Positions 1 to 21,745 of a stretch of 64,000 nt of DNA are shown piece by piece. The position numbers and the translations under genes are program-made. The notes beneath the pieces were generated by a model. It did not search any database, was not told the DNA's origin, and saw only the letters and a list, made by a program, of their open reading frames with translations. Source of the DNA: a virus; the IMG/VR virus record IMGVR_UViG_3300032246_001533, positions 6,580-70,579 of that record. The stretch is one strand, 5' to 3'. Each line of letters starts with the position of its first letter. Positions within the stretch are counted from its first letter, which is position 1.

Positions 1-184
1 CACGATAAAATATTTTTGTGTAGCATTTACCCGAAGGCGTGTAGAGATTTACAGTAGAATATTTATCTGCAAATCCCCAGTCAATAAACTTTGCAAACTC
101 TTTGTGTGCTTGCAATTCATCTGCATATTGAAAAGAAAAATCAGGTGATTTATTTTCATCATAGGTTACAGTTATTTTATACAT
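1..184 (-). CDS. Hypothetical early protein, 3'-truncated by the window edge (MYKITVTYDENKSPDFSFQYADELQAHKEFAKFIDWGFADKYSTVNLYTPSGKCYTKIFYR...)
   Basis: Hand translation; ATG at 184 lies immediately after the upstream stop (186-188); frame is open to the window edge. Confidence 0.75.
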   Translation of the reverse strand, partial: MYKITVTYDENKSPDFSFQYADELQAHKEFAKFIDWGFADKYSTVNLYTPSGKCYTKIFYR

Positions 185-185
185 A

Positions 186-320
186 TTAGTTATTCCAATC
201 TAGTGTAACACACTCGCATTTTGTTATTGTTATGGTGTTACCATTGCTACTTACAGTAGCAATAGTATCGCACCCATCGCATAAGAATACATTTGATAAA
301 TTATCTAGCAGGTTTCCCAT
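186..320 (-). CDS. 44-aa Cys-containing micro-protein (CDGC...CEC)
   Basis: Hand translation MGNLLDNLSNVFLCDGCDTIATVSSNGNTITITKCECVTLDWNN; AGGTGAG RBS-like sequence upstream; packed tightly between its neighbours. Confidence 0.7.
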   Translation of the reverse strand: MGNLLDNLSNVFLCDGCDTIATVSSNGNTITITKCECVTLDWNN

Positions 321-321
321 A

Positions 322-537
322 TTATTCACTCACCTTTACGGCTACTGTGCGATAAGTTTTGCGACCCCAAGTATTGCTTCCGCTATTAGGTGCAATTTCT
401 ACAAGATAGGTTTCGCAACCTTCATACCAAATTGGTTGTGGGTGCTTTTCTGCACTGATAATTTCACCTCGCATTGTGCGGGAAATATAAGGCTTTCCTA
501 CAAGTAGGTTTTCGATTGAGTATACATTGGCTGACAT
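322..537 (-). CDS. 71-aa hypothetical protein, possibly a small beta-barrel
   Basis: ORF track; GAAGGTGG RBS; start overlaps the upstream stop (TAATG). Confidence 0.8.
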   Translation of the reverse strand: MSANVYSIENLLVGKPYISRTMRGEIISAEKHPQPIWYEGCETYLVEIAPNSGSNTWGRKTYRTVAVKVSE

Positions 538-656
538 TAGTTGCCACCTTCCTTTTCTTTATTGTTAGATATTGTAGCAGATAGCACTGACATTGCTTTT
601 TCTGCATTTGCTTTACGTGTTGCAAGGACGTGTGCCTTGTATTCATCTAGGTTCAT
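537..656 (-). CDS. 39-aa hypothetical protein (MNLDEYKAHVLATRKANAEKAMSVLSATISNNKEKEGGN)
   Basis: Start reassigned to ATG 656 (AGAAGG RBS, promoter at 687-708) from the track start at 845. Confidence 0.65.
   Translation of the reverse strand: MNLDEYKAHVLATRKANAEKAMSVLSATISNNKEKEGGN
571..592 (-). promoter_or_regulatory. Phage promoter motif TGTCAG-N10-TACAAT
   Basis: Minus strand reads TGTCAGTGCTATCTGCTACAAT; same spacing as five other copies. Confidence 0.65.
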
Positions 657-686
657 TTCTGACCTTCTTTCTCTTGATATGCCGTA

Positions 687-708
687 AGTATAACAGAACG
701 CACTGACA
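687..708 (-). promoter_or_regulatory. Phage promoter motif TGTCAG-N10-TATACT
   Basis: Minus strand reads TGTCAGTGCGTTCTGTTATACT; about 30 nt upstream of ATG 656. Confidence 0.75.
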
Positions 709-755
709 TTTTCCAGTTCTGCAAGGGTTTGTCTCAATATATGGAGCGTGGCAAA

Positions 756-771
756 TGTGATAAAACTCACG
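756..771. promoter_or_regulatory. CRP-family operator-like site
   Basis: TGTGA-TAAAAC-TCACG, one mismatch to TGTGA-N6-TCACA. Confidence 0.6.
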
Positions 772-779
772 TAAAATAC

Positions 780-806
780 GGCGTGTCGTACTTGACACGA
801 CACGCC
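780..806. repeat. Perfect 10-bp inverted repeat containing GACAC/GTGTC (WhiA-like) pentamers
   Basis: GGCGTGTCGT-ACTTGAC-ACGACACGCC. Confidence 0.6.
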
Positions 807-823
807 CGAACGGGGCGACAAAA

Positions 824-847
824 ATTTGCAGCTTGTCAACTGCAAAT
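824..847. terminator. Hairpin with A/T tracts on both sides; likely terminator of the upstream minus-strand unit
   Basis: ATTTGCAG-N8-CTGCAAAT, 9 nt beyond the stop at 857. Confidence 0.55.
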
Positions 848-856
848 CTTTTTTAT

Positions 857-958
857 TTATTTTATTTTATCTAAAATCTTTTCTAATTCTTTTAATTGTT
901 CAAGATTAAGATGATCCAAATTTATTGCATCAGCAAAACCAAAAATATCTTTTTCCAT
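857..958 (-). CDS. 33-aa micro-protein (MEKDIFGFADAINLDHLNLEQLKELEKILDKIK)
   Basis: Hand translation; TAATG coupling with the upstream gene; GAGG RBS. Confidence 0.7.
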   Translation of the reverse strand: MEKDIFGFADAINLDHLNLEQLKELEKILDKIK

Positions 959-1098
959 TATTCGACCTCTTTCCATTCAAAACAATAAGAATCTTTTACA
1001 AAAGAATTTTTAACTACAGAATCAAAAAGAGAAATTGCTTGGTCTTCATCTTCTGCATTAATATCTAACCAAACGCCAAATGTATATTTTTTAGTCAA
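958..1098 (-). CDS. 46-aa micro-protein (MTKKYTFGVWLDINAEDEDQAISLFDSVVKNSFVKDSYCFEWKEVE)
   Basis: Hand translation; TTG start with GGAGG RBS inside the upstream gene. Confidence 0.7.
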   Translation of the reverse strand: MTKKYTFGVWLDINAEDEDQAISLFDSVVKNSFVKDSYCFEWKEVE

Positions 1099-1303
1099 GG
1101 TAAATACCTCCCTTTACATTTTTATGATTAACACACACATTTCCACGGGGAATCGGTGTATGACATTTGAAGCATTGCATTTGAACACTAGCGTTATTTG
1201 CTATTGCCCATTCCAAATCTATCTTAGTAGATGGAGAAGCATTTTCTAATGATACCCAGCCAGCACCATTTTCATTCATTTCAAAAATTTCTAAGTTAGC
1301 CAT
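1091..1303 (-). CDS. 70-aa protein with a C-terminal CxxC...CxxH putative zinc site
   Basis: ORF track; CFKC...CVNH; AGGAG RBS. Confidence 0.75.
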   Translation of the reverse strand: MANLEIFEMNENGAGWVSLENASPSTKIDLEWAIANNASVQMQCFKCHTPIPRGNVCVNHKNVKGGIYLD

Positions 1304-1436
1304 TTACTAGAACTCCTAACTCCATTTTTACATACTTACCGCTTTTGCGGTCTGAGCAGACTGGGCAGAACCAATCTTGAGTTTCGCATGTCTGATACTG
1401 ACATGTCTTGCATTTATTTACCATATATTGAGTCAT
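1296..1436 (-). CDS. 46-aa zinc-ribbon micro-protein (CKTC...CPVC)
   Basis: Hand translation MTQYMVNKCKTCQYQTCETQDWFCPVCSDRKSGKYVKMELGVLVNG; AAGGAG RBS; promoter at 1485-1506. Confidence 0.75.
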   Translation of the reverse strand: MTQYMVNKCKTCQYQTCETQDWFCPVCSDRKSGKYVKMELGVLVNG

Positions 1437-1484
1437 TTTGACTCCTTTCTTTTGCTAACCTTTAGCAACTTTCTTTATAATGGA

Positions 1485-1506
1485 ATTATAGCAGGGGGGT
1501 CTGACA
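1485..1506 (-). promoter_or_regulatory. Phage promoter motif TGTCAG-N10-TATAAT (extended -10)
   Basis: Minus strand reads TGTCAGACCCCCCTGCTATAAT. Confidence 0.8.
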
Positions 1507-1543
1507 TCTACTCGCGGGTAATGTGTACAAATTGGACATTTGC

Positions 1544-1613
1544 AAATGTGACTTATATCATGTGGATAACTTACGCTCAAATTTAAATGTGATGTGCATC
1601 ATGTGGATAACTT
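1544..1613. repeat. Two copies of a composite element: CRP-like site overlapping a perfect DnaA box
   Basis: AAATGTGA-N5-ATCATGTGGATAACTT at 1544-1572 and 1585-1613; TGTGGATAA is the reverse complement of TTATCCACA (1561-1569, 1602-1610). Confidence 0.75.
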
Positions 1614-1624
1614 GTCGGCAAAAA

Positions 1625-1640
1625 TCGAACAAATGTTTGA
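1625..1640. promoter_or_regulatory. Actinobacterial-type LexA (SOS) box
   Basis: TCGAAC-AAAT-GTTTGA, one mismatch to TCGAAC-N4-GTTCGA. Confidence 0.65.
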
Positions 1641-1674
1641 ATTATATTTATTCATGATCTTGCATAAATATGCG
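1641..1674. promoter_or_regulatory. Tandem ARG-box-like (ArgR) sites
   Basis: ATTAT-ATTT-ATTCA and TGCAT-AAAT-ATGCG versus the TGNAT-W4-ATNCA core, at 20-bp periodicity. Confidence 0.45.
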
Positions 1675-1700
1675 GGCAGTTTCTAGAGTTGCCCAGCTCT
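1673..1700 (-). ncRNA. Candidate compact H-type pseudoknot, copy 2
   Basis: AGAG-C-UGGGC-AA-CUCU-AGAAACU-GCCCG, starting just after the stop at 1706. Confidence 0.5.
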
Positions 1701-1705
1701 TTTTT

Positions 1706-1891
1706 TTATTCTTCTACCGCAAGATTTCTCATGCACTCTTCCCAAAATCGGTCAGAGTCAAAACGTTCATTGTCTGTAATAAACATTTCAGAAAAATCAT
1801 TTACTAAATCTTCATACACGTCAATTTTAATTTCTGATGCATATGAGTTTAAGATTTCCGCAGTTGCTACATAGTCTTTGCGAGTCATCAT
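1706..1891 (-). CDS. 61-aa acidic helical hypothetical protein (MTRKDYVATAEIL...)
   Basis: ORF track; AAGGA RBS. Confidence 0.8.
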   Translation of the reverse strand: MMTRKDYVATAEILNSYASEIKIDVYEDLVNDFSEMFITDNERFDSDRFWEECMRNLAVEE

Positions 1892-1918
1892 TTTAGTTCG
1901 TGTCCTTTTCTCTATTTG

Positions 1919-2089
1919 TTACTTGCTTGTCTTTACCATAGCAAAACGGCGTGAACCATTTGCTAAGATTAAATTAACACGGGTTACTTTGTTAGAGATT
2001 GGAGAGAAGCCAGCAATTCGACCTGTTACACCTGTTTTGCTTGTGGTGAATAGGTCTCCGATTTGGTAAGTGTATCCGCTTAGTGTCAT
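1919..2089 (-). CDS. 56-aa small beta-barrel-like (SH3/KOW-like) protein, paralog B
   Basis: Hand translation MTLSGYTYQIGDLFTTSKTGVTGRIAGFSPISNKVTRVNLILANGSRRFAMVKTSK; AAGGA RBS. Confidence 0.8.
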   Translation of the reverse strand: MTLSGYTYQIGDLFTTSKTGVTGRIAGFSPISNKVTRVNLILANGSRRFAMVKTSK

Positions 2090-2128
2090 TTTAGTTTTCC
2101 TTTTCTTTTTTTCTTTGTTGGGTTTGGT

Positions 2129-2157
2129 TGAGCCTTTTTATATCTTGCTCAGGATAT
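2129..2157 (-). ncRNA. Candidate compact H-type pseudoknot, copy 1
   Basis: AUAUC-C-UGAGC-AA-GAUAU-AAAAAG-GCUCA, preceded by the hairpin UUUAGC-AAAUC-GCUAAA (2157-2173). Confidence 0.55.
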
Positions 2158-2174
2158 TTAGCGATTTGCTAAAC

Positions 2175-2342
2175 TTACTTGATTGTAACTGTTGTCCAGC
2201 GATAATCGCCGTTTTCAAGTGACAACTTTACGCGGGTGCGTGTTTCTGTGACGGGGATAATCTCTGTGATTGTTCCTGTTACATTAGAACGCTGTGTAGT
2301 GAATAAATCACCGATTTGATATGTCTTTCCTTTTACTGTCAT
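2175..2342 (-). CDS. 55-aa small beta-barrel-like protein, paralog A
   Basis: Hand translation MTVKGKTYQIGDLFTTQRSNVTGTITEIIPVTETRTRVKLSLENGDYRWTTVTIK; AAGGA RBS. Confidence 0.8.
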   Translation of the reverse strand: MTVKGKTYQIGDLFTTQRSNVTGTITEIIPVTETRTRVKLSLENGDYRWTTVTIK

Positions 2343-2376
2343 TTCTTTGTCCTTTTCTTTAGGTGGTTATTTCCCT

Positions 2377-2398
2377 AGTGTATCACTAGGGTCTGACA
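2377..2398 (-). promoter_or_regulatory. Phage promoter motif TGTCAG-N10-TACACT with its -10 inside an 8-bp inverted repeat
   Basis: Minus strand reads TGTCAGACCCTAGTGATACACT; CCCTAGTG-TAT-CACTAGGG at 2373-2391; TTGACA at 2402-2407 with a 19-nt spacer. Confidence 0.75.
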
Positions 2399-2409
2399 TC
2401 TTGTCAAAT

Positions 2410-2562
2410 TTAGAGGATTTCGTCTGGGTCAAAATCTGGTGTATCTGGTAAGTTAAACTCTGATTCTTCAGGGTTCTCATCTTCCCAAATATCGTTTTGC
2501 TCTTGCATGAAATCGAGGGGGGATAGAGTAGAGGTTCTCTCCCATGAATATACATATGACAT
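2410..2562 (-). CDS. 50-aa highly acidic micro-protein
   Basis: MSYVYSWERTSTLSPLDFMQEQNDIWEDENPEESEFNLPDTPDFDPDEIL; start reassigned to ATG 2562 (TAATG coupling). Confidence 0.7.
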   Translation of the reverse strand: MSYVYSWERTSTLSPLDFMQEQNDIWEDENPEESEFNLPDTPDFDPDEIL

Positions 2563-2666
2563 TAGTTTAGTCCATTCTTCTTGAGGTCTTGATAGATAGC
2601 ATAGCATAGGGGTATGACAACAGATAGCAAGCCTATCTGCACTAGGCTAGTTAGTAGGCGATTCAC
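2562..2666 (-). CDS. 34-aa single-pass membrane micro-protein
   Basis: Hand translation MNRLLTSLVQIGLLSVVIPLCYAIYQDLKKNGLN; GTGA coupling; GAGG RBS. Confidence 0.65.
   Translation of the reverse strand: MNRLLTSLVQIGLLSVVIPLCYAIYQDLKKNGLN
2598..2619 (-). promoter_or_regulatory. Variant promoter motif TGTCAT-N10-TATGCT (intragenic)
   Basis: Minus strand reads TGTCATACCCCTATGCTATGCT. Confidence 0.45.
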
Positions 2667-2830
2667 TTGTTTACCTCTACCTTCATTACATTAGCTGAAA
2701 ACTTTACTTTACTAGCGAGGTTACTTGCATTGAGTGTATCTATTAAGTGGTCAATAGCCTTAACCTCATGCGCTATGTTATTAACGCTTAGTAGTGTAGA
2801 GCCTTGCCATATTGAGTAAGTGATAGTCAT
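2663..2830 (-). CDS. 55-aa hypothetical micro-protein (MTITYSIWQGSTLLSVNN...)
   Basis: Hand translation; follows the promoter at 2867-2888. Confidence 0.75.
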   Translation of the reverse strand: MTITYSIWQGSTLLSVNNIAHEVKAIDHLIDTLNASNLASKVKFSANVMKVEVNK

Positions 2831-2866
2831 TATCTGTTCTTCTTTCTTTAGTTTGTTATAGTTGGA

Positions 2867-2888
2867 ATTATAGGGGATAGGTCTGACA
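2867..2888 (-). promoter_or_regulatory. Phage promoter motif TGTCAG-N10-TATAAT
   Basis: Minus strand reads TGTCAGACCTATCCCCTATAAT. Confidence 0.8.
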
Positions 2889-2917
2889 AATAGGGGGATA
2901 TAGAGGGGGTGTGTCTA

Positions 2918-2933
2918 TGTGATTTACATCACA
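2918..2933. promoter_or_regulatory. Perfect CRP-family consensus site
   Basis: TGTGA-TTTACA-TCACA. Confidence 0.75.
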
Positions 2934-3089
2934 TTAGATGCACTCTATACACTCGCATCCTTTAGAGCGGATAAGGTAGGCTAGTACCTCTTTGCGTGTA
3001 TAAGCATCTAGTCCATAAGATGACTTAACGCCTCCATTATGGAAGTCATGCACGATAGTGCTAAATAGTGTTTCTGTTAGTGTAGTCAT
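2934..3089 (-). CDS. 51-aa micro-protein with C-terminal CxCxxC
   Basis: Hand translation MTTLTETLFSTIVHDFHNGGVKSSYGLDAYTRKEVLAYLIRSKGCECIECI; AAGGTAGG RBS. Confidence 0.75.
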   Translation of the reverse strand: MTTLTETLFSTIVHDFHNGGVKSSYGLDAYTRKEVLAYLIRSKGCECIECI

Positions 3090-3143
3090 TTACTGACCTA
3101 CCTTTCTTTATCAAGAACCTTTCTTGATTTTCTTTATAGTAGA

Positions 3144-3172
3144 ATACTAGCACACAATATCGAGAAAATCAA
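3144..3172 (-). promoter_or_regulatory. Canonical sigma70/SigA-type promoter
   Basis: TTGATT-N17-TAGTAT with an extended TG. Confidence 0.65.
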
Positions 3173-3203
3173 GCACCAACACGGACATATCGGACATATT
3201 TTA

Positions 3204-3219
3204 TGTGTTTTACATCACA
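3204..3219. promoter_or_regulatory. CRP-family operator-like site
   Basis: TGTGT-TTTACA-TCACA; same spacer as the 2918 site. Confidence 0.6.
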
Positions 3220-3336
3220 TTTGAGCCTTGATATGCATACAAATCGGACATTACGGGCGGACTATTAATTTTTTAGTTTTTTTTCTAAAACGTGATTCAT
3301 ACAAAAAAAATGGCCATTAACATTTTGACCAAATAT

Positions 3337-3352
3337 GGTTTCACATGAAACA
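3337..3352. promoter_or_regulatory. parS-like palindrome
   Basis: GGTTTCACATGAAACA, 14/16 to TGTTTCACGTGAAACA. Confidence 0.6.
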
Positions 3353-3364
3353 TTGGGCGGGAAT

Positions 3365-3682
3365 TTAAAGATCTTTTACTTCATATTGGGGATAAGTATG
3401 TTCCATATGGCAATTAGCACATACAATTCGACATTTTTCGATCTCTTTTAGGATAGTTTTAACACTATATCGTGATTTTTCCTTAGAATCTAGCCCAGAA
3501 GCTGCTGTCATTTGAGCAATACCTACAATTTTTCCTTTTTTATCACGATATTTTGTTGATGGATCAATATGATCGAAGTGTAAAACAGCTGTATTTTTTT
3601 TATAACCACATACAACACAACCTGTAGACAATTTTATAGAATTTATATACTGTCTAACCTCTAAAGCAGACATATTTTTCAA
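3365..3682 (-). CDS. HNH endonuclease family protein
   Basis: CVVCG...LHFDHIDP...KCRIVCANCH motif. Confidence 0.8.
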   Translation of the reverse strand: MKNMSALEVRQYINSIKLSTGCVVCGYKKNTAVLHFDHIDPSTKYRDKKGKIVGIAQMTAASGLDSKEKSRYSVKTILKEIEKCRIVCANCHMEHTYPQYEVKDL

Positions 3683-4173
3683 GATTTTACCAAAGAAATT
3701 GTAAAAAAATAGCGGGTACCTCTAGTAACTGGTAAAACACCATGGATTGGCTCAGATGACATATAAACTAGATCGTATTTTTTAGGTTTATAGATAAAAT
3801 CATCTCCGACAGCAAGTTCTCCACCTTCATAATCGTCATTTAAATAAAATAAAGCTCCCATTTCAGGAAAAGGCTGGGAGTCAGAATGCATATTCATACC
3901 TACACCTTCTCTATAAATAGTCATAACACTTCCAGATACTTTATTAAAACCATCATTAAAATAAGCAGCAACCTTGTCACGATATTTATCTATGAACTGA
4001 ATGGTGTATCTATTCTCTAAATCAACGACACCTATACGTCCATCTCCTCTATCTTGCATTAAGCCTTCTTCTTCAAGATGATCCATATACTCAATTAAAT
4101 TTTCAGCATCATCCTTATCAAAAAAATTAGGAATTATTTTTACATCATTTCTCATCTTCATTTTCACTTTCAA
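3679..4173 (-). CDS. 2OG-Fe(II) oxygenase (prolyl-hydroxylase-like); true start may be ATG 4155
   Basis: HSD...YLNDDYEGGEL...HGVLPVTRGTRY. Confidence 0.85.
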   Translation of the reverse strand: MKVKMKMRNDVKIIPNFFDKDDAENLIEYMDHLEEEGLMQDRGDGRIGVVDLENRYTIQFIDKYRDKVAAYFNDGFNKVSGSVMTIYREGVGMNMHSDSQPFPEMGALFYLNDDYEGGELAVGDDFIYKPKKYDLVYMSSEPIHGVLPVTRGTRYFFTISLVKS

Positions 4174-4366
4174 ATATAAAGGACGGGGCGGGAGCTAGAA
4201 TTTTTCCAGATTCGTGTAAAGAATACAATCCCTTAGCATCAGCACCTAGTTTATCTGCAATAATGGACAACATATCATAATTTCGTTGTTCCTGGATAAA
4301 AATAGCTCCTAGGAGTTCACGAATATTTTGGACAGTATCCTCAAAATTATTTTTTTCTTCTGTCAT
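4145..4366 (-). CDS. Hypothetical protein
   Basis: ORF track; operon-like packing. Confidence 0.7.
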   Translation of the reverse strand: MTEEKNNFEDTVQNIRELLGAIFIQEQRNYDMLSIIADKLGADAKGLYSLHESGKILAPAPSFIFESENEDEK

Positions 4367-4442
4367 ATCTCAATACTTCTACAATACCCCATATAAAGCC
4401 TATAACAGCCAATACAGACAATATTACGTTAATCTTGTTCAC
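4347..4442 (-). CDS. 31-aa single-pass membrane micro-protein (MNKINVILSVLAVIGFIWGIVEVLRYDRRKK)
   Basis: Hand translation; GTG start with AAGGAG RBS; fills the gap between two genes. Confidence 0.6.
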   Translation of the reverse strand: MNKINVILSVLAVIGFIWGIVEVLRYDRRKK

Positions 4443-4680
4443 CTAGTATCTCCTTAAGTATATGTTCCCATTTATTGCTTTCCATGCCCGCCGAATTATT
4501 TATCATTAAATCATCATTTTTTGCGGTAGATAAGTGAATCCAAGCAATATCATGGGTAAGCTCAACTTTTCCTGCATATATATGTTCATTGCCCTGTTTT
4601 ATATGTATCAGAATTTGTTTGAGTTCTTCTTCTTTTTCGAACGGCTCAATGTAAGCCCGCTCTATATGTATTTTTGCCAT
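4429..4680 (-). CDS. Hypothetical protein
   Basis: ORF track. Confidence 0.7.
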   Translation of the reverse strand: MAKIHIERAYIEPFEKEEELKQILIHIKQGNEHIYAGKVELTHDIAWIHLSTAKNDDLMINNSAGMESNKWEHILKEILGEQD

Positions 4681-4699
4681 ATTAAATTATATTAAATTA

Positions 4700-4960
4700 C
4701 TAATCCCTTTTTTTCGGCTCAATGTTTTCCGAATTTTTTGCATTTTTAATTTTTTCTAAAATGCTATTGTAAAAATCTATTCCTACTTTTTTCTTGTATC
4801 CACATGCAAAACAGTCTAACACAATTTCTTCTTCAGGCGTTAAACGGTGGATTAATTGATAGGTAATTTCGGGATCTTCTTGATGCATAGGACAGGCGAG
4901 GAAGTTTGCCTTCCCCGCCTGTGCTAATTGTAAATATTCTGAAAAAACTTGTATCAGCAT
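4700..4960 (-). CDS. Small putative zinc-binding protein
   Basis: CPMH...CFAC; TAATG coupling with the upstream gene. Confidence 0.7.
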   Translation of the reverse strand: MLIQVFSEYLQLAQAGKANFLACPMHQEDPEITYQLIHRLTPEEEIVLDCFACGYKKKVGIDFYNSILEKIKNAKNSENIEPKKRD

Positions 4961-5670
4961 TATGCGGAAACCAAGTTTGCCTTATCAAATACAGAATTTA
5001 CATAATGTGCAACTGTAGGATTTCCAAAAATTGGTTTATTCCATGTTTTTGGATTTCCTGCTCTGCTTGGCATTAAATGACTTGCAACCACTTTTTCCCA
5101 ATCACCGTACTTTTTGTAGTTATATTCAAGTTCATGAATAATCCTAGCATCTTGTACCCATTCTGGAGCGTCGCAGGCTGATTTATAGCCCATATAGTTA
5201 TCCCATGTAGAAGGCATGTATTGGTAGGCACCACATGCACTGCTGGAATAAGACTTTCGATGGTATGCCGTAGCACCGCCAGTTTCCACTGACTTAATTC
5301 CATTGGCAAGTCTTGATATTACAACCCGATGATCTACTCTGTCATTTTTTATATTTAGCTTTTTGCTATATTCGGGCATTAAAAAAGTTGTTCTAGAATG
5401 TAAATCATTAATAAAATAAAGATGCTTTACTGCTTTTTCTTTATTATTATTATTAATATAATCTATATATATAATATCTTTAATATTAACTAAGTTATTA
5501 TATTTATTAATATATAATATATTTTTATTATACACTATAACTTCTTTCATTTGAGCTTGTGCTGAATTATTTGTGGTAAATAATGCTGTGATAATCATCA
5601 CATTAATCATAAACCAAACTGTTTTTATCAGCATTTTACTTTCTATCCTTATTTTGTTCTCATTATTCAT
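4960..5670 (-). CDS. Lytic transglycosylase (SLT/lysozyme-like) with an N-terminal hydrophobic segment
   Basis: IKSVETGG...SSACGAYQYMPSTW motif; GGAGG RBS. Confidence 0.8.
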   Translation of the reverse strand: MNNENKIRIESKMLIKTVWFMINVMIITALFTTNNSAQAQMKEVIVYNKNILYINKYNNLVNIKDIIYIDYINNNNKEKAVKHLYFINDLHSRTTFLMPEYSKKLNIKNDRVDHRVVISRLANGIKSVETGGATAYHRKSYSSSACGAYQYMPSTWDNYMGYKSACDAPEWVQDARIIHELEYNYKKYGDWEKVVASHLMPSRAGNPKTWNKPIFGNPTVAHYVNSVFDKANLVSA

Positions 5671-5743
5671 TTTGAACCTCCTGGGGAAAGAGTAGCAATA
5701 TCAATACTATCATGATACAATTGGAAAAACAAGTCGGGAGCGT

Positions 5744-6745
5744 ATGAAAGTCTCATTTACTGGTGCCCCAGAATACATGGATCGCAATGTAGGCTACGGT
5801 GAAGCATCATTTCATATATTTAAAGAATTTAAAAAAAATGATATTGAGTGTGTAATTGGTGATCCTTTTGCAAATATAGGTATATCTTTTATTCAACCAA
5901 ATCTTTATTCATTTGGAAAAAAACAATATAAAATAGGATATACTCCATGGGAGTCAACAGATGTTTTTTTTCAATGGAAAAAACCATTAATGGAAAATAT
6001 TGATGAACTTTGGACAACATCTACTTGGTGTGCAAATATTTTTAAACAGCATACCAATAAACCAATTTTTGTTTACCCACATGGTGTAAATCAAGATTGG
6101 GTTCCAGTTAAAAGAAATATTAATAAAGACAGACCATTTAGATTTTTACATATTGGAGACCCAGCATTTAGAAAAGATGCTCAAATGGTTGTTGATGCAT
6201 TTATATCTTTATATGGAGATGATCCAAATTATGAATTAATATTAAAATGTAGTGGAATGTCAATTGTAAAAGTTTATGATCCTATTACTGGAAGCATACT
6301 TGGAACCCCCTCAACTTTTTATAAAAATATAAAAATTATTGAAAGCATGCTTTCTACAGAACAAATAAACGGATTATATGATCTTTGTGATGTATTTGTT
6401 TATCCCTCTTGGGGAGAAGGATTTGGATTTAACCCACTTCAAGCTATGTCTAAAGGTATACCAACTATATGCACTGCAGACTGGGCCATGTATAAAGATT
6501 ATATAACCGCACCGCTAGATTCTGTTTGGTATCCGTCACCTTGGCAAACAACTCATCCAGGATTAATGTTAAAACCAGATTATTCACAATTAAAATTTTA
6601 CTTAAAAGATATTGTAGAAAATTATAAATCTTATAGTGCAATTGCCTATAAAAATGCTTTCTTAATACATGGAGAGTACAATTGGAAAAAAGTTTCAAAA
6701 CCAGCTATAGAAAGATTAAAAGAAATTCAAAAATCTAATTTTTGA
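5744..6745 (+). CDS. GT4-family (GT-B) glycosyltransferase
   Basis: YTPWES; DVFVYPSWGEGFGFNPLQAMSKG (E-x7-E-like motif with Q in the second position). Confidence 0.85.
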   Translation: MKVSFTGAPEYMDRNVGYGEASFHIFKEFKKNDIECVIGDPFANIGISFIQPNLYSFGKKQYKIGYTPWESTDVFFQWKKPLMENIDELWTTSTWCANIFKQHTNKPIFVYPHGVNQDWVPVKRNINKDRPFRFLHIGDPAFRKDAQMVVDAFISLYGDDPNYELILKCSGMSIVKVYDPITGSILGTPSTFYKNIKIIESMLSTEQINGLYDLCDVFVYPSWGEGFGFNPLQAMSKGIPTICTADWAMYKDYITAPLDSVWYPSPWQTTHPGLMLKPDYSQLKFYLKDIVENYKSYSAIAYKNAFLIHGEYNWKKVSKPAIERLKEIQKSNF

Positions 6746-15225: not shown

Positions 15226-16799
15226 TGTCACCAATCAGTCAATTTCCCGCAGCAAGCACAGGTAGTGAAGCGGTAACATATACATCTGGAACAACCGCAC
15301 AACGTGCAGCATCTCCAACAGCAGGTTCAACATATTATAATACCACACTTGGTGAATTACAAATATTTCAAAATGGTATTTGGACAGCTCTTCAAATGCC
15401 AGCATTATCTAAAATTCCAACAATTGTAAGTGTAACAGATAACGGCTCGGGAATTGCATATGGTTCAAATTCTTCTGTAACAATTGTTTATACTCAAAAT
15501 CAAGAAGGTGGATTTGCTCCAAACTATACTGCAGTTTCAACTCCAGGCAGTATTACTCAAACTACAGCAATTTCAAACCCGTCAACTTCAAATAGCATAA
15601 CTGTAAATGGATTAACATCAAATACAAGCTATACCTTTACATTAACTGGTACAAATTCTTCTGGAGCAGGTGCTTCAGCAACAACAAATTCAATTTTAGC
15701 AACTTCTGTTCCACAAGCTCCACAATCTACTTCTTACACTTCAATTACAGCAAATTCATTAACATTAAATTGGACAGCTGGAAATACAGGCGGTAAAGCA
15801 GTAACATATAGAATTAGAAATATGTCAACAAGTACAGATGTTACAACATCAAACACAACTTATAATTTTACAGGCCTATCTGGTGCTGTATATTTTAATA
15901 TTTATGCAGTAAATGCAAATGGTGATTCTCTGCCACTTACAACAGAAACTCTTGTAATGGGTCCCTATACATTGCTGTCAACTGTAACTTCATCAACAAC
16001 TTACACAGTCCCGTCTGGTAAAACACAACTTTCATTTTCAGCAATAGGATCGGGAGCAAATGGTTCTGCTGGAAATACAACTTCTGGAGGAGCAGGTGGC
16101 CGTGGCGGTGGTGCAGCAATTGTTTATAATTTTGCAGTCACACCTGGAGATCAATTTGTAATATCAATTCCAGGTTCGGGTGGCGGTACAACAACAGTAA
16201 CTAAATCTGGTCAAGCAACGCTAATATCAGCTGGAGCAACAGTTTCAGTAGACAGCGCACAAACTTCAGGAAATCACGCAACCGCAAATCCTGGAACAGC
16301 TGGAACAGCTGGAAACAATGGTAATGGCCCAACAACAGGAACTGCTGGTGGTGCTGGTAATTCATTAACATATCCAACAACAATAACAAATATTTCAGGG
16401 AACCAAGCTGTAAACACAGGTTCAGGCGGTGGTGGCGGTGGTGGCGGAGGAGCATTTAACGAAGCACAAGTAACTGTAGTTAATGGCCCTTACACAGGAT
16501 ATGCTAGATATTATTCTTATCAATACTATACAACAAGTTACTATTTCTTAGCCTCATCTCTTAGCAATCCTTCATCAGGTGGAGCAGCAGGTGGAACAAA
16601 TGCAGGAGCAGGTGGCGCAGGCGGAACAGGAATGTTTGTATCTGCAGGATCAATTGTTTCAGATACAGTTCAAGGCTCTAATGGAACAAACTATGGTGGT
16701 GGCGGAGGCGGATCTGGCGGTATTTCCTCTGGAAAAACTTCTACAAATGCTGTAGGTGGAACAGGATCACAAGGGGTGGTGTATATTTATGGTAAATAA
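15225..16799 (+). CDS. FN3-domain plus glycine-rich fibre tip protein
   Basis: GLTSNTSYTFTLTG and LNWTAG...IYAVNANG FN3 patterns; GGGGGG blocks ending GSQGVVYIY. Confidence 0.8.
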   Translation: MSPISQFPAASTGSEAVTYTSGTTAQRAASPTAGSTYYNTTLGELQIFQNGIWTALQMPALSKIPTIVSVTDNGSGIAYGSNSSVTIVYTQNQEGGFAPNYTAVSTPGSITQTTAISNPSTSNSITVNGLTSNTSYTFTLTGTNSSGAGASATTNSILATSVPQAPQSTSYTSITANSLTLNWTAGNTGGKAVTYRIRNMSTSTDVTTSNTTYNFTGLSGAVYFNIYAVNANGDSLPLTTETLVMGPYTLLSTVTSSTTYTVPSGKTQLSFSAIGSGANGSAGNTTSGGAGGRGGGAAIVYNFAVTPGDQFVISIPGSGGGTTTVTKSGQATLISAGATVSVDSAQTSGNHATANPGTAGTAGNNGNGPTTGTAGGAGNSLTYPTTITNISGNQAVNTGSGGGGGGGGGAFNEAQVTVVNGPYTGYARYYSYQYYTTSYYFLASSLSNPSSGGAAGGTNAGAGGAGGTGMFVSAGSIVSDTVQGSNGTNYGGGGGGSGGISSGKTSTNAVGGTGSQGVVYIYGK

Positions 16800-17223
16800 T
16801 TTAACAAAAGAGAACGGACATTTTGAAAATCATCCTTATGTTTTTTTAAATGAAAATAACGAAGTAATTTCTGTTTATTTGTTTGAAGAATGTGAGAGTC
16901 AAGATTTAATAAATCATGTATCAGAACTCCTAGAGACAACAAATATAATTTCTTTATGTGAAAATTCTTCATATGATGGATCTTATACAGTTAGTCCAGG
17001 AATGAAATATGAAAATGAAATGTTTTATGATGTAGCTCCATACCCATCATGGAAGAAATCTACAGAAGCGCCAGTTTGGGAAGCACCTATTGAAATTCCA
17101 TCTGAAAACCACGATGAAGACGGAAACGAAATAGAATGGCTTTGGGATGAAGAACACAAATGCTGGTCACGAGGCATATACATAGAAAATCCAAATAAAA
17201 ACAATGGAGATAACAATGAATGA
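16789..17223 (+). CDS. Acidic Trp/Pro-containing protein, possible fibre assembly chaperone
   Basis: PYPSW...WEAPIEIP...WLWDEE; start reassigned to ATG 16789. Confidence 0.65.
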   Translation: MVNNLTKENGHFENHPYVFLNENNEVISVYLFEECESQDLINHVSELLETTNIISLCENSSYDGSYTVSPGMKYENEMFYDVAPYPSWKKSTEAPVWEAPIEIPSENHDEDGNEIEWLWDEEHKCWSRGIYIENPNKNNGDNNE

Positions 17224-17821
17224 GATTATAGTTAATTCAATATCAAAAACACAAGCGATTGCACTTAAACATTTTTTATCTAATGTTTATAACAATGTTA
17301 ATATTTCTTTAAAGGTTAATAAAAATGTTAGATTTTCTGAATTAGAAAATAACATAGGTGTTATTGTTATAGTAAGAAACCCTCTAGATACAATTACAGA
17401 CCAATATTATGGTCTGCTTGAAACTGCTACTTCAACAAGCAATAAACCAGATTTAGACTTCCTTTTAGAAAATTATATTGACTCTGTAAACAAACAAAAC
17501 GCTCATAAAGAAATAGTTTTATTTTTAACATATGATTTTGTAAAAAATATTTCAAAAGAAAATTCAAATTATGAAGAAAATAAAGCAAAATTAAAAGAAG
17601 CTATTGAAGAAAAATTTAATCTTAATACAACAAAAGATTTTAATATTATGGAATCAAGAAAAGTTGAAACAGAACAGTTTAAAGATGAAATTGGTAATTT
17701 AAGAAGTTTTTCAGTAAATGAAAGTGTTATAAATTCTATTAAATCTAAAATTGTTGAAAATGCATTGTATTTAGATGCAATGATTGCTTATAATGAAGCA
17801 ATCTCTTTATCAAAAATATAG
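17216..17821 (+). CDS. Divergent sulfotransferase-fold-like protein
   Basis: VIVIVRNPLDTI resembles the 3'-phosphate-binding motif; 5'-PSB loop is degenerate. Confidence 0.5.
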   Translation: MNEIIVNSISKTQAIALKHFLSNVYNNVNISLKVNKNVRFSELENNIGVIVIVRNPLDTITDQYYGLLETATSTSNKPDLDFLLENYIDSVNKQNAHKEIVLFLTYDFVKNISKENSNYEENKAKLKEAIEEKFNLNTTKDFNIMESRKVETEQFKDEIGNLRSFSVNESVINSIKSKIVENALYLDAMIAYNEAISLSKI

Positions 17822-17833
17822 AAAAGAAATAAA

Positions 17834-18592
17834 ATGATTATACAAATAATAGGCCTGCCAGGTTCTGGTAAGACAACTCTTTCTATTGCCCTTAAAGATA
17901 GAATTAATGCCGTACATATTAATGCCGACCAGGTTAGATCAACTATAAATTCAGATCTTGGCTTTGCAATAGAAGACCGCATTGAACACTCCCGACGAAT
18001 GGGTGCCATGGCTAGAATGTTATCTGGACAGGGCTTAAATGTTGTGGTAGACTTTGTATGCCCTACAAAAGAAACAAGAGAAGCATTTGGAAAACCAGAT
18101 ATTCTTGTATGGATGAAAACAATTGAAGAAGGAAGATTTGAAGATACAAACAAGATGTTTGTAAGTCCCGAAGAATTTGATATTATATTTGATTCTCATC
18201 AAATGGATGAATATCAAAAATCAACTTGGATTATTCAAAAATTTAATTTACACGATTGGTCTGCACCTACAACTTTGATGTTAGGCAGATATCAACCATG
18301 GCATGAAGGTCATCACGTTCTATATGAAGAAGCGGGAAAGAGAACAAGTCAAGTTATGCTAGGTGTTAGAAATACATTTAACACAAGCCCTAAAGATCCA
18401 CTTACATTTGATCAAGTAAAAGAATACATTGCAAAAGATGAATTTATGGATGGCTCAATGGTAGTTAAAATGCCTAACATTACTAATATTGTTTATGGAC
18501 GTGATGTAGGCTATAAAATTGAACAGGTTAAACTTGGCGATGAAATTGAGGCTATATCTGCTACTCAAAAACGAAAAGAAATGGGGATTTAA
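17834..18592 (+). CDS. cysC: Adenylyl-sulfate (APS) kinase fused to a HIGH-superfamily nucleotidyltransferase domain
   Basis: GLPGSGKTT P-loop, NADQVR, DLGFAIEDRIEHSRR; C-terminal LGRYQPWHEGH. Confidence 0.8.
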   Translation: MIIQIIGLPGSGKTTLSIALKDRINAVHINADQVRSTINSDLGFAIEDRIEHSRRMGAMARMLSGQGLNVVVDFVCPTKETREAFGKPDILVWMKTIEEGRFEDTNKMFVSPEEFDIIFDSHQMDEYQKSTWIIQKFNLHDWSAPTTLMLGRYQPWHEGHHVLYEEAGKRTSQVMLGVRNTFNTSPKDPLTFDQVKEYIAKDEFMDGSMVVKMPNITNIVYGRDVGYKIEQVKLGDEIEAISATQKRKEMGI

Positions 18593-18795
18593 TGAAAGTA
18601 ACTAAATCACGTTCGTTTACAAAATCTTTAACTTATAGGGTTTTTGGCACAGTATCTTCTTGGGCTGTTGTGTATGCTATTACTGGAAAAGGATCTCTAG
18701 CTACCCTAGTAGCATTTTGGGAAACAGTAGTAAAAGTTGCTATTTATTATATACATGAACGTGTATGGAATGGTATTAATTGGGGTAGAAAATGA
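18592..18795 (+). CDS. DUF2061-like small membrane protein
   Basis: RSFTKSLTYRV...YYIHERVWNGINWG. Confidence 0.8.
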   Translation: MKVTKSRSFTKSLTYRVFGTVSSWAVVYAITGKGSLATLVAFWETVVKVAIYYIHERVWNGINWGRK

Positions 18796-19454
18796 TTTAT
18801 TCTCCCGACCACAATTTTTTACTTTTAAAAAATAGAAAAGTCGGGGGATCTTCATTAGAAGTTGAGCTTTCAAAAGTCCTACCTAGTAACGCAATAATAA
18901 CTCCAATCAATGGAGAAACAAATATTTGGGATACAAAACCAAAAGACCATAATGAAAGAAATTATGGCAAAAATTTTTTTAATCATATAAAATACAATCA
19001 AATTGAAAAAATATTGGATTTATCAAATGTTAAGACATATGTTTTTGTAAGACATCCGTATAACTCTGTACTATCTCATTTTTTTCAACATATTTGGTTT
19101 TTTCACCAAGATATAGTTTGGGATAAACTTTTAGAAAATGAAAAAAATGATTTAATTAAAAAATATTTTAATGATGAATTTTTTAAATGGTTTAGAGGAG
19201 ATAAATATCTTTATTTAGATAAAAATACAAACACTGTATTAGTAGATAAAATATTGTATTATGAAAATGGTATAGAAAATGAAATTAATCCAATTTTAAA
19301 ATTACATAACATACCTAAAATACAATTAAATTCATTTGAAAAAGCTCACAGACCAAAAGAAATAAATGTCAAAGATGTTTTTAAAGAAGAGCACCTAGAA
19401 AAAATAAGAAAGGAATGGTGGTGGGAGTTTGAAAATTTAAACTACCAACCTTAA
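18792..19454 (+). CDS. Sulfotransferase (Sulfotransfer_2-like)
   Basis: FLLLKNRKVGGSSLE (5'-PSB) and FVRHPYNSVLSHF (3'-PB). Confidence 0.75.
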   Translation: MIYSPDHNFLLLKNRKVGGSSLEVELSKVLPSNAIITPINGETNIWDTKPKDHNERNYGKNFFNHIKYNQIEKILDLSNVKTYVFVRHPYNSVLSHFFQHIWFFHQDIVWDKLLENEKNDLIKKYFNDEFFKWFRGDKYLYLDKNTNTVLVDKILYYENGIENEINPILKLHNIPKIQLNSFEKAHRPKEINVKDVFKEEHLEKIRKEWWWEFENLNYQP

Positions 19455-19455
19455 T

Positions 19456-20196
19456 ATGAAAAAAATATTAGTTATAATGCCAGTGTATAATCAAGAAAGG
19501 CTTTTAAAAAGATCAATATATAGTGTGCTTGAACAAACACATACAAATTTTACACTTGTGATTATAAATGATGGTTCAACAGACAATACTGGTGCAGAAG
19601 CTGATAAATTTTTATATGATCGAAGGGTAAAAGTAATTCACAATAAAGAAAATTATGGATGTTATTATTCAAGAAATTTAGGTTTAAACTTTATGAAAAC
19701 AGATGAATATGATTTTTTTACAATACAAGATTCTGATGATTTTTCTCAACCAGATAGATTTGAAAAAATTTTAAATGTTTTTGAATCTGATAATAATTTT
19801 ATATCTGTTTATAATTATTATTTAAGATTTGGAAAAGAAGCTCCAAAATGGCACAACAAACCCTTTGAAGCTATTCCCGATTTAGCTCATGCTTTTTTTA
19901 CAAAAAATGTTTTTAAAAAATTAGGTTATTTTGATAATATAGATTTTGCTGCAGATCAAGAATACTGGGAAAGAGCAAGAGCACTTTGTCATATAAATCC
20001 GTCTCATATTTATTTAATAAATGAAGTTTTATATTATGCAGAAATGACGGGTAATAATATGATTCTAAAATATGACAATGATATGAGAGAAAAATATAGG
20101 CAAAAATGGAGACCTGAAGTAAAAAAAATGGAAATTAATCAAAATTTTTATAGACCATTTTTTGAAATAAAAGATATTGTAAAATGGAAACCATAA
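19456..20196 (+). CDS. GT2-family glycosyltransferase
   Basis: VIMPVYNQE...INDGSTD...SRNLG...QDSDD. Confidence 0.9.
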   Translation: MKKILVIMPVYNQERLLKRSIYSVLEQTHTNFTLVIINDGSTDNTGAEADKFLYDRRVKVIHNKENYGCYYSRNLGLNFMKTDEYDFFTIQDSDDFSQPDRFEKILNVFESDNNFISVYNYYLRFGKEAPKWHNKPFEAIPDLAHAFFTKNVFKKLGYFDNIDFAADQEYWERARALCHINPSHIYLINEVLYYAEMTGNNMILKYDNDMREKYRQKWRPEVKKMEINQNFYRPFFEIKDIVKWKP

Positions 20197-20384
20197 CTCA
20201 ACTTTTTGTGGGAGGAACAGGAAGAAGCGGTACAACAATATTGCTTGAATACCTAAACCAAAGCTTTCTAGTAAATGCATCAAAATGGCAAAATATAGAT
20301 GATTTTAAAAAGTTTAATAAAATGTATAACAAAATATTAAATGATTTAAAAGATAATAATATATATATTGAGAAATATTATTAA
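20184..20384 (+). pseudogene. Internally deleted sulfotransferase remnant
   Basis: LFVGGTGRSGTTILLEYL 5'-PSB loop in a 66-aa ORF lacking the rest of the fold. Confidence 0.6.
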
Positions 20385-20385
20385 A

Positions 20386-21054
20386 ATGATTCCTAAAATA
20401 ATTTGGCAAACATATGAGTTAGAACACAAAAACCTTCCAAAAAAAGCAAAAAATTTTTCTTCATCCTGGCAGCATTTAAACCCAGACTGGGATTACGTAT
20501 ATGTTTCGGAAAAAAATAGGTTAAATTTTGTTAAAGAATATTTTGGAGAAGAGTGGTATACTATATATAAATCTTACAAGATTAATGTCATGAGGGCAGA
20601 TTTATGGAGATATATGTGTTTATATATTAAAGGTGGCCTGTACTCCGATCTAGACATTGTTTGTAAAAAACCAATAGAAAGCTGGTTAAATCTAGATACT
20701 GGATTTATGTTTTCTGAAGAACCAAACAACCCAGGCTACACACAAATGATTTTTGCATCAGAACCTAAAAATGTTTTTTTAAAAAATATATTAGATGCAA
20801 TTAAAGAACAATATTATAAAAAAAATATATATAGCAATTTAATAGATGCAGAATCTAAAGAAGTAGGATATATTGTTTTTACAAATTCTATATTAAAAAC
20901 AATTAATTCAGGTGAAAAAAATTTTATAGCATTTTTGGGTAAAGATGCAGAGCAAATACACTATAATTGCATTAAACATTACAGAGCAGGAAACACAGAA
21001 GTCTTTGGAAAAAAATATAAACAATGGCAAAAGGAAATGGAGCAATATGTTTAA
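20386..21054 (+). CDS. GT32-family (DXD, OCH1-like) glycosyltransferase
   Basis: MIPKIIWQT...RADLWRY...GGLYSDLD. Confidence 0.9.
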   Translation: MIPKIIWQTYELEHKNLPKKAKNFSSSWQHLNPDWDYVYVSEKNRLNFVKEYFGEEWYTIYKSYKINVMRADLWRYMCLYIKGGLYSDLDIVCKKPIESWLNLDTGFMFSEEPNNPGYTQMIFASEPKNVFLKNILDAIKEQYYKKNIYSNLIDAESKEVGYIVFTNSILKTINSGEKNFIAFLGKDAEQIHYNCIKHYRAGNTEVFGKKYKQWQKEMEQYV

Positions 21055-21745
21055 GAAAAAACAAGAAGTTTTAAAAATAGAATATGAAAATAAATTTTTA
21101 TGGATGCCACCAATATCTCCAGCAAAATCCGTTGTGCCAGATTGGTATAAAAGCATATTACCAGTAAGCAATGATATAAAACAGTTACCAATTGCTCCAA
21201 ATGTAAAATCATGCATCCCATTTTTAGATTCTTTAACAATTGGCTACGTTGTTCCATTGCCAATGGATATTGCTGTAAGAATAGATGAAGAGGGTTTTCC
21301 AATAATTAGTTGGGAAATGAATGATCATAAAATAGTTGGTGCAAGAACTGGAGATGAAGCTCCAATACCAACACCAGCTGGTTTTGATGATACGCATTTT
21401 GTTTGGTCAACAATATCTGCATTCCAATTACCAAAAGGATATAGTGCAGTAATAACGCACCCATTAAATAGACATGATCTACCATTTATGACACTTTCTG
21501 GAGTAGTAGATGCAGATGCAATTATGCATGAAGGAAGTATTCCTTTTTATATTAAAAAGGGTTTTGAGGGTTTAATAAAAATGGGAACACCAATGTTTCA
21601 AGTAATTCCATTTAAAAGAGAAGATTGGCAAATTGAAGAGAAAAAAGGTTTATTTGAAATTGGATCAGCTAATGGCGCCAGAAATAAATTCTACACACTT
21701 GGAGGGTATAAAAAGTTTCAATGGAAGAGAAAGAGTTATAATTGA
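21047..21745 (+). CDS. Phage hypothetical protein (PDWYK...KSCIPFLD; possibly a dUTPase-like beta fold)
   Basis: Start reassigned to ATG 21047 (GGAG RBS); GTPMFQVIPFKREDW. Confidence 0.7.
   Translation: MFKKKQEVLKIEYENKFLWMPPISPAKSVVPDWYKSILPVSNDIKQLPIAPNVKSCIPFLDSLTIGYVVPLPMDIAVRIDEEGFPIISWEMNDHKIVGARTGDEAPIPTPAGFDDTHFVWSTISAFQLPKGYSAVITHPLNRHDLPFMTLSGVVDADAIMHEGSIPFYIKKGFEGLIKMGTPMFQVIPFKREDWQIEEKKGLFEIGSANGARNKFYTLGGYKKFQWKRKSYN

Follow-up and report, generated by a model that had tools for sequence, protein, structure and literature searches.

In phage T4 the middle genes are expressed from promoters that combine a MotA box at -30 with a sigma-70 -10 element, and the factors involved are T4's own. 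Sites for host regulators also occur on phage promoters, as in the LexA boxes at prophage antirepressor genes and the NtcA and PhoB boxes of cyanophages; in the cases known to us a single regulator acts at one or a few genes. The stoperators of Cluster A mycobacteriophages repeat one word, which is bound by a repressor that the phage itself encodes, and bacterial DnaA boxes and parS sites, at datA-type loci and elsewhere on the chromosome, load or titrate DnaA and ParB. Here we describe a locus that resembles each of these in part, in a virus contig of 70,579 bp (IMG/VR record IMGVR_UViG_3300032246_001533). The window is the whole stretch of 64,000 nucleotides that was analysed, bases 6580-70579 of the contig, with base 6580 as position 1. 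Our subject is the spacer at window positions 1507-1674 and the early promoter at 1485-1506 that it precedes; sites are on, or read from, the minus (early) strand unless stated.

A further precedent is bacterial. Mycobacteria and other Actinobacteria have a RecA-independent promoter, written 'tTGTCRgtg - 8 nt - TannnT' in an excerpt of PMC5656591. Excerpts of PMC8635444 describe PafBC-dependent hybrid promoters with a canonical -10 and a -26 element that spans -23 to -28 and contains a conserved GTC, and without a -35; PafBC activates them by insertion between sigma A region 4 and the DNA, and that paper itself draws the comparison with sigma appropriation by T4 MotA/AsiA. The trigger of PafBC is single-stranded DNA (ssDNA; excerpt of PMC11804915), and some mycobacterial genes, including recA, have both a PafBC-type promoter and an SOS box (excerpt of PMC8223512).

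We propose that the spacer acts in cis as a module through which several host regulators control a PafBC-type early promoter, and give this reading a probability of about 0.55. The region 1507-1674 is best read as non-coding DNA that controls, from upstream, one of the early promoters on the minus strand, of which there are at least 15, in an uncultured phage that probably infects freshwater actinobacteria. On the evidence of sequence, such control regions are written in a fixed vocabulary of short words, used only upstream of these promoters, at preferred distances, by hundreds of related phages, and the phage probably ties its early genes to host state.

The early promoter and its bacterial counterpart

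The genes to the left of about window position 5670 lie on the minus strand in short units, each preceded by a 22-bp promoter. The copy at 1485-1506 (minus strand) reads TGTCAGAC-N8-TATAAT, with an extended -10 (TGc) and without a -35, and is of the PafBC, or RecA-NDp, type. A first-pass annotation, made from the sequence and its open reading frames (ORFs), had placed a promoter here, and it is real: TGTCAG-N10-TAnnnT is present in 15 minus-strand copies between genome (contig) positions 294 and 9467, with one stray plus-strand match. TGTCAG is found in 15/15 of these promoters and TGTCAGTG in 9/15.

Relatives were drawn from IMG/VR with two proteins. The portal gave 597 confirmed matches, of which 80 with 80-86% identity were taken, and the early DUF932 protein gave 168, of which 80 were taken. 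The 80 DUF932 loci (1.364 Mb), turned so that the early genes read on the plus strand, make up the early-locus set, and the portal (structural) loci (0.973 Mb) are the comparison set. The promoter occurs 911 times on the early strand of the early loci and once on the other strand, with counts of 8 and 7 in the portal loci. From 723 distinct promoters the logo aaTGTCAG(T)(g/c)(c/g)-nnnn-TGn-TAnAAT is obtained; its -35 position is uninformative, with no more than 0.25 bit in the interval 15 to 3 nt before the element, and only the two directly preceding positions are A-rich. The hexamer also emerges when it is not imposed on the search, in that among 3153 early-strand matches to TGnTAnnnT the -26 position is occupied by TGTCAG in 678 and by TGTCGG in 63, always with a 7-nt spacer, and the other strand has nothing comparable to this excess. 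The spacing is invariant, since 678 of the 681 copies of TGTCAG near TGnTAnnnT have the 7-nt spacer to TGn.

The letters tTGTCRgtg with their GTC, the 8-nt spacing to the -10 and the lack of a -35 are thus all present, and the phage promoter, TGTCRG(TG)-N8-TAnnnT, matches the PafBC-dependent RecA-NDp promoter, a host type that the first-pass annotation had overlooked. The likeness to the mycobacterial and other actinobacterial promoters includes letters, spacing, the placement of the element at -23 to -28, the missing -35 and a LexA box alongside, as at mycobacterial recA. The phage copies differ in that there are 8-17 per phage, AT-rich and driving early genes of unassigned function, and in having an AA immediately before the element as well as an extended -10 (TGn); their dependence on PafBC is putative. 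T4 middle promoters are also similar, as hybrid promoters in which the place of the -35 is taken by an element near -26 to -30 and a factor intervenes between the DNA and sigma region 4. Unlike T4, no phage factor is recognisable here and the promoters serve what are apparently the earliest genes, so that the factor would be the host's. In the literature we found no paper linking a PafBC-type promoter to a phage; supplements or other papers could already hold part of this. A 2025 paper treats pafBC in connection with resistance to mycobacteriophages. The Streptomyces phages Wakanda and Annadreamy were considered as a cultured experimental system and rejected, as they do not share the promoter pattern.

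The spacer upstream of the promoter

The stretch 1507-1705 lies between the promoter and the stop codon of an ORF of 61 amino acids, and the spacer is non-coding, because the indels among orthologous spacers are not multiples of three. In order toward the promoter it holds a terminator hairpin, an ARG-like pair with a 20-bp period, a LexA box, two DnaA boxes, ATGTCCAAT and TTAC-N6-GTAG; the hairpin and the LexA-, CRP- and parS-type sites are listed without a strand. Both DnaA boxes (1602-1610 and 1561-1569, minus strand) are perfect copies of TTATCCACA, which we take to be the consensus; they are 41 bp apart and lie 99.5 and 58.5 nt, respectively, from the promoter. The LexA (SOS) box of actinobacterial type, TCGAACAAATGTTTGA at 1625-1640, has one mismatch to TCGAAC-N4-GTTCGA, the mycobacterial LexA consensus (PMC3381160), and is the sole site with at most one mismatch in the 70.6-kb contig. 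The spacer thereby pairs a PafBC-type promoter with a LexA-type box, as some mycobacterial genes do. Abutting the LexA box is ARG-like box B (TGAATAAATATAAT, 1641-1654, minus strand), with three mismatches, and 20 bp from it is box A (cGCATATTTATGCA, 1661-1674, minus strand), with one mismatch to TGCAT-N4-ATGCA; the pair has the 20-bp period but is a weak match to TG(C/A)AT-N4-AT(G/T)CA.

Two degenerate CRP-like palindromes, each with two mismatches to TGTGA-N6-TCACA, overlap DnaA box 1 (palindrome at 1588-1603) and DnaA box 2 (1547-1562), with centres 89 and 48 nt, respectively, from the first T of the promoter. They are part of a 41-bp direct repeat (25/30 identical) of which the conserved core is the DnaA box. 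Nearest to the promoter are ATGTCCAAT (1531-1539, minus strand), which differs at one base from the family word ATGTCCGAT and lies where that word is mostly found in the family, 29 nt from the promoter, and TTACCCGCGAGTAG (1508-1521, minus strand), a near copy of the family palindrome TTAC-N6-GTAA recognised by direct reading and from the relatives.

The matches could be a product of chance in AT-rich DNA, as the individual weakness of the CRP-like and ARG-like sites suggests: their counts are equalled in 84 and 788, respectively, of 5000 dinucleotide shuffles of 1507-1674, so that the ARG-like match is not significant alone in the spacer. However, the DnaA and LexA counts are each reached in 0 of 5000, and none of the shuffles reaches the six hits observed (in four motif classes) or as many as three classes. 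Among 1157 late-region windows of the same size none has two or more motif classes, and the early spacers, which make up 2,066 of the 70,579 bp, hold seven of the 11 CRP-type sites with at most one mismatch, all three perfect DnaA boxes and the only LexA-type site. The words are also conserved in relatives and the linkers are not. In orthologous spacers from four lineages, the whole basis of these values, mean pairwise identity is 0.89 for DnaA box 1, 0.83 for box 2, 0.84 for the promoter and 0.78 for the hairpin, and 0.28-0.47 for the linkers. Chance is already contradicted by the genome-wide enrichment, the contrast of early and structural loci, the conservation and the shuffles, and we consider its probability close to negligible.

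The first-pass annotation had described the spacer as tiled with operators of several host regulators. By direct reading its motifs all lie where it placed them, and their density relative to shuffled spacers and the retention of the DnaA boxes and promoter in relatives bear it out, as do further sites in other early spacers. There the CRP-type sites (window 2918, 756 and 3204) are perfect or have one mismatch, the site at 2918-2933 being a perfect TGTGATTTACATCACA with its centre 37 nt upstream of the promoter at 2888-2867. It had counted all sites alike, which suits the perfect DnaA boxes and the LexA box with its single mismatch but not the degenerate CRP-like and weak ARG-like pairs. The palindrome reported at 1509-1520 (TACTCGCGGGTA) is present but imperfect (10/12), and the 20-mer at 1521-1540 does recur at 3233-3252 but with only 17/20 bases identical. 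Likewise, the parS-like site exists, at 3333-3348, but has two mismatches, one of them in the central CG, to the 16-bp palindrome TGTTTCACGTGAAACA that we presume to be the parS consensus.

Operator-like words in related phages

Words resembling host operators recur in hundreds of related IMG/VR phages, in early regions only, and in two complete relatives the promoters and all of the words are found together in one early region of 8-9 kb. In the relatives the words of each class favour certain distances to the promoter, as measured over 778 non-identical promoters with the first T of TGTCAG as the reference point. The CRP-type word TGTGA-N6-TCACA, which is the mycobacterial CRP target (PMC13720381), counts 375 in early and 0 in portal loci. 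The logo of 380 sites, TGTGAtnTwwATCACA, fits CRP and not Rex; Rex-type (TGTGAA-N4-TTCACA) and FNR-type readings were rejected, position 6 being T in 52% and A in 4% of the 380 sites. Perfect sites lie 36, 41, 46 and 56 nt from the promoter. After 779 promoters were collapsed to 329 sequence clusters (69 with a perfect CRP-type site), 54 of 74 CRP-type cluster entries fell at 35-37, 45-47 or 55-57 nt, a 10-bp phasing. If TGTCAG corresponds to -28 to -23, the centres are near -64.5, -74.5 and -84.5, and the phased sites would share one helical face in a class I-like arrangement, upstream of the presumed position of PafBC.

LexA boxes with at most one mismatch occur 11 times in the relatives, all in early loci, in nine distinct contexts, six of them exact. 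L081/82 and L088 have the box without mismatch at the orthologous place, L084 and L085 have it without mismatch too, and it appears in unrelated contexts in L106 and L123/126. Its role as a classic operator with a sigma-70 -35/-10 was considered and dropped, as a scan gave 13 promoter-like sites where 10.1 were expected and the hexamers next to the box are not conserved. For the ARG-like words, exact TGCAT-N4-ATGCA counts 24 in early and 1 in portal loci and exact TGAAT-N4-ATTCA 28 and 0, and tandem pairs with at most two mismatches summed count 33 and 0, with a 20-bp period in every listed pair. The ortholog of ARG-like box B in L081/L082, TGAATAAATATGCA, has no mismatches. In Streptomyces an ArgR site usually consists of two adjoining boxes of 20 nt, with CTTTGCATGGTCATGCGTAA among those tabulated (PMC5839063). 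Our initial expectation that the LexA and ARG matches were chance was overturned by these sites in the relatives.

The DnaA box TTATCCACA counts 263 in early and 13 in portal loci, in tandem and inverted arrangements, at about 65, 86 and 92.5 nt from the promoter, or 69.5 nt when inverted; only 6 of 179 distinct box contexts are composites with TGA-N6-TCACA. Clusters of three to six perfect boxes, tandem and inverted, are seen just past the last early promoter of some relatives (L089, 15395-15460; L098, 10633-10699; L125, 16594-16662; G005, 40541-40629) and are candidate replication origins; the matching part of our contig is missing. parS-type sites with at most two mismatches count 12 in early and 0 in portal loci, and the site at 3333-3348 is orthologous to sites with a perfect 14-bp core in L104 and L108, within the same flanking sequence. 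The palindrome is present once or twice per early region (L081, L084, L091, L094, L102, L104, L107 and L108), exact or with one mismatch in the relatives. Perfect DnaA-box clusters and a parS-type palindrome recall datA and chromosomal parS; here they are on a phage and are mostly tied to promoters at set distances.

These sites raise the alternative that the spacer forms all or part of a replication origin, within a maintenance module: its DnaA boxes, beside AT-rich DNA, would recruit host DnaA and load the phage DnaB, and host ParB would act at the parS-like site to segregate the phage in a carrier state. The two perfect boxes do lie beside an AT-rich stretch (1641-1674), the phage has DnaB, DnaG and Pol III alpha and no DnaA, and the restriction of parS-type sites to early loci is accompanied by the lack of a ParB_N match in five relatives. 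However, DnaA boxes precede several different promoters at set distances, for example about 97 and 74 nt before the DUF932 promoter in many relatives, which fits promoter control better than a single origin, and the larger clusters elsewhere in the relatives look like better origin candidates. No DnaA-trio-like pattern was seen by eye, with no formal test. We regard an origin at this place as very unlikely.

Other words are also enriched. ATGTCCGAT counts 149 in early loci and 1 in portal loci, GGCGTGTCG 493 and 0, and TTACT-N4-AGTAA is observed 18 times with 2.3 expected. Their positions are again preferred: GGCGTGTCG at 13.5 nt (21.5 nt inverted), TTAC-N6-GTAA at 15-16 nt, ATGTCCGA at 29 nt and GAGCGTCTCA at 38 nt. 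The most enriched word upstream of promoters is (A)CGGCGTGTCG, or its inverse CGACACGCC (493 versus 0), sometimes as a 10-bp inverted repeat, and it is found at window 780-806, at genome 5165-5407 and 6303-6401, and in the early loci of relatives. GACAC is the WhiA motif (PMC10243135); GGCGTGTCG contains it and the relatives encode WhiB, so that a WhiA/WhiB site is a lead only. One of two spacers to the left of the window (genome 1849-1988 and 3819-4060) has four direct repeats of ATTACGAG; the other has by eye a tRNA-like gene, possibly tRNA-Asp, and ARAGORN, run on the window only, reported no tRNA.

The words might instead be operators for the phage's own DNA-binding proteins, which could be small, could have escaped recognition or could be encoded in the third of the sequence that the contig lacks; the likeness of the words to host sites would then reflect convergence or chance. 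ATGTCCGAT, TTAC-N6-GTAA, GAGCGTCTCA and the ATTACGAG repeats, enriched and with no nameable host regulator, would suit such an explanation, as would the many early proteins without a Pfam family and a contig that is 66% complete. As an account of the whole vocabulary we find it unlikely, for four or five independent words equal host consensus letter for letter, three of these consensuses coming from papers, and the alternation of TGTCAG with TGTCGG mirrors the R in the host motif. Moreover, early promoters must fire before phage proteins exist, and the near-complete relatives have no recognisable regulator except WhiB. WYL, HTH_Crp_2, LexA_DNA_bind, Bac_DnaA_C, Arg_repressor, ParB_N and Sigma70_r2 were found in 0/5 relatives, four of them at least 90% complete, and none of these WYL, CRP, LexA, DnaA, ArgR, ParB and Sigma70_r2 domains was found among 60 proteins of the contig. 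Because the relatives carry no such genes, CRP, LexA, DnaA, ArgR, ParB or WYL proteins binding these words must be the host's.

The repetition of short words, strand- and position-specific, is like that of stoperators and iteron arrays; the difference is that at least ten different words are used here, several equal to host consensus operators. As in the described phage promoters with host-regulator sites, phage genes would be placed under host regulators so that expression follows host state; here several host-type operators are stacked per promoter, in a grammar that extends across the early region and hundreds of relatives.

Such sites might also serve as decoys, soaking up PafBC, DnaA, LexA, CRP, ArgR and ParB as the phage DNA replicates; this would blunt the host response to DNA damage or to phage and block replication initiation, and could coexist with regulation in cis. 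Sites are dense, about 10 kb containing 15 PafBC-type promoters together with numerous words that resemble operators, and the relatives have their clusters of three to six DnaA boxes beyond the last early promoter. The mycobacterial PafBC regulon comprises about 150 genes (excerpt of PMC8635444), so that a replicating phage pool could outnumber the host sites. A sponge requires no fixed geometry, however, whereas the words keep their distances to promoters, the CRP-type sites show the 10-bp phasing, and the vocabulary is missing from DNA away from the early promoters. Such constancy of placement speaks for regulation in cis more than for a pure decoy, which we consider quite unlikely. Sensor and sponge had been offered as alternatives in the first-pass annotation, and the sensor has gained support from the early-only words, their promoter distances, the 10-bp phasing and the lack of phage-encoded regulators.

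Several observations weigh against control by host regulators. Within their classes, the CRP-like and ARG-like pairs found here are the poorest matches: the former, at 48 and 89 nt, are degenerate and off the family phasing, and may be just part of the 41-bp repeat unit that holds the DnaA box, and the latter form a weak pair equalled in the 788 shuffles noted above; E. coli-type ARG boxes show no genome-wide enrichment. The LexA box is centred about 126 nt upstream of the PafBC-type promoter and not over it, and no -10 element beside it is consistent across relatives, the TATAAT beside the box in this phage not being conserved. Related phages are non-independent samples, and the preferred distances are partly inherited among them, which clustering reduces and does not remove. 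The promoter type is absent from Wakanda and Annadreamy, with one chance-level match each, and small unrecognised phage DNA-binding proteins are conceivable with a contig of this completeness.

The phage, its probable host and proposed control by host state

The contig is 66% complete (CheckV). RecA (window 63342-63998) is truncated by its right end and an early gene of opposite sense (genome 1-247) by its left, so that it is a fragment and not a closed circle; the genomes of relatives are 96-120 kb. Structural genes encode a portal protein, protease, capsid protein and collagen-like fibres, and replication and nucleotide genes encode ribonucleotide reductase, DnaB, DnaG, Pol III alpha and RecA. 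The DNA of window 1-6000 had no match in a phage collection in near or distant modes, and window 1-4200 is contained in four DNA runs, all from a single study, with no RNA run listed for it. A segment of very low GC content (0.29) at window 16756-24043 encodes an APS-kinase-like protein, two glycosyltransferases and an FkbM-type methyltransferase, and a further GT4 glycosyltransferase lies at 5744-6745.

Upstream of the spacer is the 61-amino-acid ORF (1706-1891, minus strand, from the ORF list), which has no Pfam family; homologues of 55-63 amino acids precede the equivalent spacer in relatives. The first gene behind the promoter is a Cys-rich ORF of 46 amino acids (1296-1436, minus strand), also with no Pfam family, and more small ORFs follow down to about 857. 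Most early proteins lack a Pfam family, among them two neighbouring paralogues of 56 and 55 amino acids (1919-2089 and 2175-2342, minus strand) that share YQIGDLFTT. The hairpin at 1674-1705, GGGCA...TGCCC, is flanked by an A-run and, on its other side, by T-rich DNA, and forms a terminator-like end of the upstream unit. It is scored on the plus strand as 1674-1694, and in L082 a T-run comes after the equivalent hairpin on the early strand. In the unit-end hairpins at 1674-1694 and 824-847 the stem is preceded by an A-run and followed by a T-run; both have a plus-strand terminator score too, and may stop antisense transcription as well.

The host is taken to be a freshwater actinobacterium because the WhiB Pfam model matches in 5/5 relatives (in their records, outside the loci used for motif counts), because among 14 control genomes the family is present only in Corynebacterium glutamicum, and because whiB is a marker of actinophages (PMC10202952). 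The portal, 52-53% identical to Streptomyces phage portals, was also counted for an actinobacterial host. The WhiB model found nothing on the 66%-complete contig, and a regular expression for WhiB (Cys pattern and G[VILA]WGG) had no match in the genome or in 166 loci (L001-L166). A scan of genome contigs with the phage RecA, aimed at host recA loci, gave four loci, three of them phage contigs binned into Bacteroidia or cyanobacterial metagenome-assembled genomes, and pointed to no host.

In a plausible scenario for host-state control in cis, host RNA polymerase carrying sigma A would recognise the promoter through adaptation by host PafBC, itself activated by ssDNA. Words equal to host operator consensus (DnaA, LexA, CRP-type and perhaps ArgR) would be bound by the host's own regulators, which would raise or lower early transcription with DNA damage, replication status and nutritional state, and words with no known binder may serve phage proteins. 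More tentatively, the whole early programme of this lineage might be run from the host DNA-damage switch, gated by host sensors, with titration of PafBC and DnaA besides; taken jointly these elements are possible but doubtful. Every early promoter would then be of PafBC type, triggered by ssDNA from incoming or processed phage DNA, with gates formed by DnaA for replication, CRP for cAMP, LexA for SOS, ArgR for arginine, perhaps WhiA with the phage WhiB, and ParB at parS. A phage in a slow-growing, oligotrophic host could so choose to proceed, to wait or to enter a carrier state, and its replicating genome would also draw PafBC and DnaA off host defence and replication.

If control by host state is correct, this would be, as far as literature searches show, the first phage early regulon built on host PafBC sigma-adaptation promoters, and unlike T4 the phage would exploit the cell's ssDNA alarm with no factor of its own. 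A lytic-looking phage of the most abundant freshwater bacteria would read several host signals at once, which would bear on phage life in slow-growing, streamlined hosts and on pseudolysogeny in lakes. The words would in addition provide a sequence-defined operator set for regulators of uncultured Actinobacteria.

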